This document shows positions 1 through 1,133 of a stretch of DNA of 1,133 nucleotides, one piece after another; position 1 is the first letter of the stretch, and each line of letters opens with the position of its first letter. Location: NCBI RefSeq assembly GCF_003334815.1, contig NZ_QOWO01000106.1. One strand, written 5' to 3'. A program made the translations under genes and the position numbers. The notes beneath the pieces were generated by a model that saw nothing but the letters and a program-made list of their open reading frames with translations, was not told the origin of the DNA and made no database searches. The stretch is from Escherichia coli. GTDB taxonomy: Bacteria; Pseudomonadota; Gammaproteobacteria; Enterobacterales; Enterobacteriaceae.

Positions 1-1133
1 AAAAACTGGATCGACAAAGAAGAATATCCGCAATCCGCAGCCATCGACCTGCGTTGCGTAAATATGGTTGCCGATCTGTGGCATGCGCCTGCGCCGAAAA
101 ATGGTCAGGCCGTTGGCACCAACACCATTGGTTCTTCCGAGGCCTGTATGCTCGGCGGGATGGCGATGAAATGGCGTTGGCGCAAGCGTATGGAAGCTGC
201 AGGCAAACCAACGGATAAACCAAACCTGGTGTGCGGTCCGGTACAAATCTGCTGGCATAAATTCGCCCGCTACTGGGATGTGGAGCTGCGTGAGATCCCT
301 ATGCGCCCCGGTCAGTTGTTTATGGACCCGAAACGCATGATTGAAGCCTGTGACGAAAACACCATCGGCGTGGTGCCGACTTTCGGCGTGACCTACACTG
401 GTAACTATGAGTTCCCACAACCGCTGCACGATGCGCTGGATAAATTCCAGGCCGATACCGGTATCGACATCGACATGCACATCGACGCTGCCAGCGGTGG
501 CTTCCTGGCACCGTTCGTCGCCCCGGATATCGTCTGGGACTTCCGCCTGCCGCGTGTGAAATCGATCAGTGCTTCAGGCCATAAATTCGGTCTGGCTCCG
601 CTGGGCTGCGGCTGGGTTATCTGGCGTGACGAAGAAGCGCTGCCGCAGGAACTGGTGTTCAACGTTGACTACCTGGGTGGTCAAATTGGTACTTTTGCCA
701 TCAACTTCTCCCGCCCGGCGGGTCAGGTAATTGCACAGTACTATGAATTCCTGCGCCTCGGTCGTGAAGGCTATACCAAAGTACAGAACGCCTCTTACCA
801 GGTTGCCGCTTATCTGGCGGATGAAATCGCCAAACTGGGGCCGTATGAGTTCATCTGTACGGGTCGCCCGGACGAAGGCATCCCGGCGGTTTGCTTCAAA
901 CTGAAAGATGGTGAAGATCCGGGATACACCCTGTACGACCTCTCTGAACGTCTGCGTCTGCGCGGCTGGCAGGTTCCGGCCTTCACTCTCGGCGGTGAAG
1001 CCACCGACATCGTGGTGATGCGCATTATGTGTCGTCGCGGCTTCGAAATGGACTTTGCTGAACTGTTGCTGGAAGACTACAAAGCCTCCCTGAAATATCT
1101 CAGCGATCACCCGAAACTGCAGGGTATTGCCCA
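1..1133 (+). CDS. gadB: Glutamate decarboxylase (PLP-dependent, EC 4.1.1.15), GadB/GadA type; internal fragment covering residues ~82-458 of the 466-aa protein, partial at both ends (5' and 3' ends lie outside the window)
   Basis: Frame +1 is open across the entire window with no stop codon (377 full codons plus 2 nt). My manual translation reproduces the E. coli GadB/GadA sequence as I recall it, including the PLP-lysine motif [11 protein letters not shown], the [14 protein letters not shown] hairpin segment and the C-terminal ...[14 protein letters not shown]. Codon usage is typical of an enterobacterial gene. Recognition is from memory, not a database search. gadA and gadB encode proteins that differ only in the N-terminal ~22 residues, which are outside this window, so the symbol gadB is an arbitrary choice between the two paralogs; gadA is equally possible. 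Confidence 0.96.
583..585 (+). other. gadB: Codon for the PLP Schiff-base lysine (Lys276 in GadB numbering) within the motif [10 protein letters not shown]
   Basis: Codon AAA at 583-585 is preceded by CAT (His275) at 580-582, inside the translated [11 protein letters not shown]. Lys276 as the PLP-binding residue is established from GadB biochemistry and structure; the residue number follows from aligning window nt 1-3 to Lys82. Confidence 0.85.
655..696 (+). other. gadB: Segment encoding residues ~300-313 ([14 protein letters not shown]), which corresponds to the pH-responsive beta-hairpin region described for GadB
   Basis: Translation of 655-696 gives [14 protein letters not shown]. The assignment to the beta-hairpin that rearranges with pH is recalled from GadB crystal-structure literature, and my numbering could be off by a few residues. 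Confidence 0.5.

Follow-up and report, generated by a model that had tools for sequence, protein, structure and literature searches.

A 1133-nt Escherichia coli contig from the interior of the glutamate decarboxylase genes, very probably a collapsed gadA/gadB repeat

The glutamate decarboxylases of the Gad acid-resistance system consume one proton per glutamate. The two genes of E. coli MG1655 are located far apart on the chromosome: gadB at 1.57 Mb in the order pqqL-gadB-gadC, and gadA at 3.67 Mb in the order ccp-gadA-gadX-gadW. Their coding sequences differ at 31 nucleotides, of which 26 are found within nt 6-243, and the divergence of the first 243 nt amounts to ~11%. The other differences are at nt 642, 699, 1179, 1377 and 1395. 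At the protein level, only residues 3, 5, 6, 9 and 22 are affected (Q3, L5, L6, F9 and A22 in GadA; K3, Q5, V6, L9 and S22 in GadB), all of which lie upstream of the sequence analysed here. An earlier note on this DNA had described two near-identical genes at distant loci, gadA adjoining gadX and gadB upstream of gadC, with protein differences limited to the N-terminal ~22 residues, and the MG1655 genome agrees on each of these points. The note had also given the length of the near-identical repeat as ~1.4 kb. While the near-identity holds, the length does not: the near-identical stretch spans about 1.15 kb (nt 244-1401), because most of the differences are concentrated in front of it.

In a de Bruijn graph, a two-copy exact repeat becomes an edge of its own that equals the maximal exact repeat, and each unique neighbour shares k bases with it. 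In the K-12 (NCM3722-background) shotgun assemblies of Lyons et al. 2011 (PMC3045373), contigs were without exception interrupted at a set of repeats that includes gadA/gadB together with tufA/tufB, rRNA operons and IS copies. The reported gadA break (3664203-3665603) is the entire gadA coding sequence, shifted by 1977 nt relative to NC_000913.3. With the same 1977-nt shift, the gadB break (1568677-1569826; PMC3045373) would correspond to about nt 243-1392 of the coding sequence, its 5' limit being the start of our sequence. As for tufA/tufB, rRNA operons and IS copies, an exact gad repeat that exceeds k or the read length yields a separate contig. The gad repeat differs from these others in being short (about 1.1 kb), in having two copies and in lying inside a coding sequence, with its 5' boundary within the gene. 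PMC10362622 credits the finding of gene conversion between gadA and gadB to Bergholz et al. 2007 (Mol Biol Evol 24:2323). Collapse of the gadA/gadB repeat into a contig of its own is a real, ordinary and already known feature. The value of the case described below is practical rather than conceptual, as both the biology and the assembly behaviour have been published.

The window within the glutamate decarboxylase gene

The window is the whole stretch of DNA that was analysed; its 1133 nt make up the source contig in full. The following features relate it to the gene and its product:

1-1133, plus strand: internal coding fragment of glutamate decarboxylase (gadA/gadB), nt 244-1376 of the coding sequence, residues 82-458, frame 1
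1-906, plus strand: PF00282, pyridoxal-dependent decarboxylase conserved domain (hmmscan, i-Evalue 4e-99)
583-585, plus strand: AAA codon of Lys276 in the SGHKFG motif, located at window residue 195

Frame 1 of the plus strand is free of stops across all 377 of its 377 codons; the remaining five frames contain 1-19 stops each. Of the 1401-nt coding sequence, 243 nt precede the window and 25 nt follow it. It is 100% identical at the nucleotide level to annotated E. coli glutamate decarboxylase genes (gadA, gadB). A megablast search of complete E. coli genomes returned a gad match in 5426 of 5426. The median genome has two such places, and the top 30 records, at the least, match all 1133 nt without a mismatch. 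The window is therefore the interior of an E. coli glutamate decarboxylase gene, as the earlier note had claimed from the sequence. The note had named marked divergence from both E. coli/Shigella loci as the observation that would speak against this, and the identity to chromosomal E. coli gad genes is complete.

The encoded segment supports the same identification. Window residues 1-302 align with positions 66-375 of the 375-position PF00282 model (hmmscan), and phmmer scores 896.9 bits for both solved structures, GadA (1xey) and GadB (1pmm), over residues 82-458. The S-x-H-K motif is present as SGHKFG. Its lysine corresponds to residue 276 of the full-length protein, which we take, following the GadB crystal structures, to be the PLP-binding lysine of GadB. 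The protein segment is the catalytic core of the PLP-dependent decarboxylase of the Gad acid-resistance system. No Rfam family matched either strand at E<=1. On the minus strand, an antisense open reading frame of 178 aa occupies window positions 574-1110, and frame -3, interrupted by one stop, stays open for 191 codons. Codon bias in the sense frame (GC3 0.63) is the most likely reason for this reading frame.

It is extremely improbable that the window derives from another organism, from a plasmid or from a homolog gained by horizontal transfer. Although six records filed as plasmids in PLSDB have gad matches, these are 97-99.7% identical to the window and all of the records are predicted to be non-mobilizable, while the chromosomal E. 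coli genes match the window exactly. The organism comparison covers E. coli genomes, from which Shigella is inseparable here. Three of the PLSDB records are 4.8-4.9 Mb in size (NZ_OL790696.1, NZ_CP141089.1 and NZ_CP134663.1) and two others are large (CP054253.1, 253 kb; NZ_CP141085.1, 386 kb). In the sixth, NZ_AP027522.1 (3.7 kb, 3722 nt), positions 3672-3721 correspond to window positions 1-50, a match of 50 nt only. These gad-bearing records resemble chromosomes filed under the wrong label or assembly fragments terminating within the repeat.

Silent sites and the choice between gadA and gadB

Three of the differences between the MG1655 paralogs fall inside the window, and all three are silent:

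399, plus strand: silent variable site at nt 642 of the coding sequence; window T, MG1655 gadA C, gadB T
456, plus strand: silent variable site at nt 699; window T, MG1655 gadA C, gadB T
936, plus strand: silent variable site at nt 1179; window C, MG1655 gadA C, gadB T

The window thus reads T-T-C, compared with C-C-C in gadA and T-T-T in gadB of MG1655. MG1655 gadA (b3517, glutamate decarboxylase A) encodes the same protein as the window at residues 82-458 and shares C at nt 1179, but has C and C at nt 642 and 699. MG1655 gadB (b1493, glutamate decarboxylase B, gadBC operon) is likewise identical in protein at residues 82-458 and shares T and T at nt 642 and 699, but has T at nt 1179. The window equals neither copy and is a mosaic of a gadB-type T-T and a gadA-type C. 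The sequences that would distinguish the loci, which are the gadA-specific 5' 243 nt with the gadX-side flank and the gadB-specific 5' end with the gadC flank, are absent from it. The silent differences to both K-12 loci, which the earlier note had proposed to score, therefore give a mixed pattern that indicates no locus. A paralog call from the MG1655 diagnostic sites was rejected for this reason, as two sites are gadB-type and one is gadA-type. The annotated names under the best 30 exact matches (23 gadA, 3 gadB and 4 gad) were likewise rejected as posterior probabilities: the listing gives a single place for each record, and several records carry the window twice.

The exact window sequence occurs at both loci in the population. 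J53 carries it at gadA; in JM109 and 1000C-3 it occupies gadB. Both loci were compared in six genomes (1000C-3, LAU-OXA, IGC_EcoliInv_1.1, TSW4848-W1, J53 and MG1655), with E2865 as a seventh. The first four of the six carry the exact window at gadA as well as gadB. Across the window, gadA and gadB differ once in J53 (nt 1179) and three times in MG1655.

Whole-locus and unique-flank queries identified 11 records with T-T-C at gadA and K-12-type flanks at 100%, and 7 such records for gadB; three records are common to the two lists. Among ~5400 genomes, 3892 records contain an exact 61-mer with C at nt 1179 and 2405 the version with T; for an exact 90-mer covering nt 642 and 699, the counts are 2143 records with T-T and 2654 with C-C. 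These counts from short queries show polymorphism at both loci; since their record sets cannot be intersected, they do not yield an exact number of genomes whose two copies agree. Both states of nt 1179, as well as T-T at nt 642 and 699, are found under genes named gadA and genes named gadB. The exact window allele is present in roughly 30-90 records, or 0.6-1.7%, an estimate over 5432 ranked records that is based on 60 evenly spaced rows, of which the first alone is 100% identical and the one at about rank 92 has one mismatch, together with the best 30 being exact.

Nucleotides 642, 699 and 1179 are not fixed locus markers in the population, and the window therefore cannot be assigned to gadA or gadB. 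The earlier note had reached the same conclusion from the identity of the proteins. The conclusion stands, given the mosaic T-T-C pattern and the four genomes with the exact window at both loci. The argument was insufficient on its own, since the silent sites could have discriminated.

Repeat boundaries and contigs with the same ends

The two ends of the window coincide with the positions at which the paralogs diverge:

1, no strand: 5' end of the contig, one base past nt 243 of the coding sequence (gadA T, gadB C), the branch point of the repeat
1133, no strand: 3' end of the contig, one base short of nt 1377 (gadA G, gadB A)

The longest run that is identical between gadA and gadB in 1000C-3, LAU-OXA, IGC_EcoliInv_1.1 and TSW4848-W1 is 1133 nt long, extends from nt 244 to nt 1376 and is base for base the window. 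All seven genomes compared have a paralog difference at site 243, and six of the seven have one at site 1377. The exception is the bovine isolate E2865 (NZ_AP018808.1), the copies of which are the same at nt 1377 and differ at nt 642, 699, 939, 1017 and 1350. The 3' limit of the exact repeat hence varies between lineages and is not universal, a point against the collapse reading proposed below, while the 5' limit at nt 243 is constant in the seven genomes.

We consider it very probable that the window is a collapsed gadA/gadB repeat contig from a short-read assembly and represents both genes. The origin of this particular contig in such an assembly is proposed with the same high confidence. 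The source genome, E. coli or Shigella, would carry a gadA in the acid fitness island and a gadB that are identical over nt 244-1376. The window would then be the repeat edge produced by a de Bruijn-graph assembler from two loci that share an exact stretch, and the contig would stand for both genes and belong to neither. The divergent first 243 nt, which include the five amino-acid differences between GadA and GadB, and the unrelated 3' flanks would fix the ends of the repeat. Gene conversion between the paralogs may be what keeps nt 244-1376 identical; the ~11% divergence of the 5' part and the unrelated 3' flanks would in that case limit the conversion tracts. The occurrence of mosaic variants across the loci, the identity of the copies within genomes and collapsed contigs from other lineages that are up to 23 sites away from the window are consistent with conversion, although some of the finished assemblies may be artefactual.

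The exact allele is also present in genomes that carry it at one locus only, such as J53, in which it is found at gadA while gadB differs at nt 1179. This speaks against collapse and raises the possibility of a single-locus origin, with the window as an arbitrary piece of the gadA gene of a genome that has T-T-C at gadA and another haplotype at gadB. J53, NCM3722, DH5a, TG1, MFDpir and others match the T-T-C gadA locus and its flanks at 100%, J53 gadB reads T-T-T, and gadA is the most frequent name among the best 30 exact matches. This excess of names is inflated by the listing of one place per record. A fragment of gadA would also have to abut sites 243 and 1377 at its two ends, which only one of the 269 placements of a 1133-nt window does, and its size of 1133 nt would have to coincide as well. 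A genome of the J53 type has an exact repeat that ends at nt 1178 and not at nt 1376. We therefore regard an origin from gadA alone as very unlikely.

An arbitrary fragment of gadB alone would need the same coincidence at sites 243 and 1377, and we judge it highly improbable. JM109, a K-12-labelled strain (CP178206) and 23CRST017 match the T-T-C gadB locus and its flanks at 100%. Such records number just 7, and at least four of them (IGC_EcoliInv_1.1, TSW4848-W1, MG-phbCAB-3-6 and LAU-OXA) carry the window at gadA too.

Contigs with the ends of the window recur in public assemblies, as would be expected of the collapsed repeat. The exact 377-aa partial product is present in 584 index blocks of public assemblies, and in 583 of these every carrier contig is 2 kb or shorter. 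Of the ten places listed, nine are contigs of exactly 1133 nt, produced by several assemblers and deposited as NCBI drafts, ENA metagenome assemblies or Logan assemblies. Their ends are identical to those of the window and they differ from it by 2-23 synonymous changes, so that none of the nine is base-identical to it, which counts against the collapse reading. Many E. coli lineages therefore give a contig with the same ends. A remark in the earlier note that such repeats collapse in short-read assemblies thus fits the window itself. The 90%-identity cluster of the 377-aa product has 615 members, and those listed are mostly partial glutamate decarboxylases of E. coli and Shigella on contigs of ~0.6-1.3 kb.

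At the three silent sites, six of the nine contigs read C-C-C, one C-C-T, one T-C-C and one T-T-C. Judged from these sequences, the variety suggests homogenisation within genomes beside ~2% divergence between lineages.

The tenth place is a 4.5-Mb scaffold (GCA_051846735.1, JBPYCA010000001.1), in which the repeat piece is inserted into the gadA locus between two gaps of 100 N (positions 2581-4340 of the locus). The left and right flanking contigs each overlap the 1133-nt piece by 77 nt; this k-type overlap belongs to an analogous assembly and not to that of the window. Beyond the overlaps, the left contig has the gadA-type T at nt 243 and the right contig the gadA-type G at nt 1377. As the piece sits between N gaps with duplicated 77-nt ends, gadA is called as separate partial products of 107 aa and 377 aa. 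Scaffolders can thus insert the repeat with N gaps and duplicated k-mers and split gadA into partial genes. More generally, a contig that stands for two genes makes copy number, allele typing, SNP calls and the counting of genes unreliable over the 1.1-kb stretch, in short-read assemblies of E. coli and Shigella as well as in metagenomes. On the conversion reading, the repeat would also be a clean example of concerted evolution in a duplicated acid-resistance gene.

Disagreement among K-12 assemblies and copy number

Finished assemblies with K-12-identical flanks disagree at exactly nt 642, 699 and 1179 (window positions 399, 456 and 936). MG1655 has C-C-C at gadA and T-T-T at gadB, and J53 has T-T-C and T-T-T. 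NCM3722, DH5a and TG1 have T-T-C at gadA, JM109 has T-T-C at gadB, and IGC_EcoliInv_1.1 and TSW4848-W1 have it at both loci. Compared with the T-T-C gadA-locus query, MG-phbCAB-3-5 and its sister strain MG-phbCAB-3-6 are one mismatch apart.

This disagreement could be due to real, recent gene conversion, or to consensus mixing or reuse of the repeat edge in hybrid assemblies. It is rather doubtful that the differences are real gadA/gadB conversions that took place within the few decades of K-12 laboratory history and are not assembly artefacts. If they were real, they would provide a dated and directly measurable conversion rate, and they would suggest that divergence of the paralog-specific N-terminus, or selection on it, upholds the sharp 5' limit at nt 243.

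The same sites bear on the possibility that the window was collapsed from two non-identical copies, with bubbles in the graph merged and T-T-C being a chimeric consensus that exists at neither locus. The window is a mosaic of the MG1655 alleles C-C-C and T-T-T at the three sites that differ, and the restriction of the K-12 disagreement to these positions fits consensus mixing in some of the assemblies. However, T-T-C is found at both loci in finished genomes of the non-K-12 isolates 1000C-3 and LAU-OXA, so that a homogenised source is sufficient to explain the window. T-T-C is also just one of four possible resolutions of the bubbles. A chimeric consensus is possible but unlikely, and a collapsed repeat of two identical copies is the reading we prefer.

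The number of window matches per genome departs from two in some cases. The search of E. coli genomes gave more than two matches in some of them, with up to 10 in one and 3 in XL1-Blue, and a single match in a few, such as strain CAR, LR536431 and O157:H7 Z1816. These atypical counts may represent copy-number changes, deletions or split alignments.
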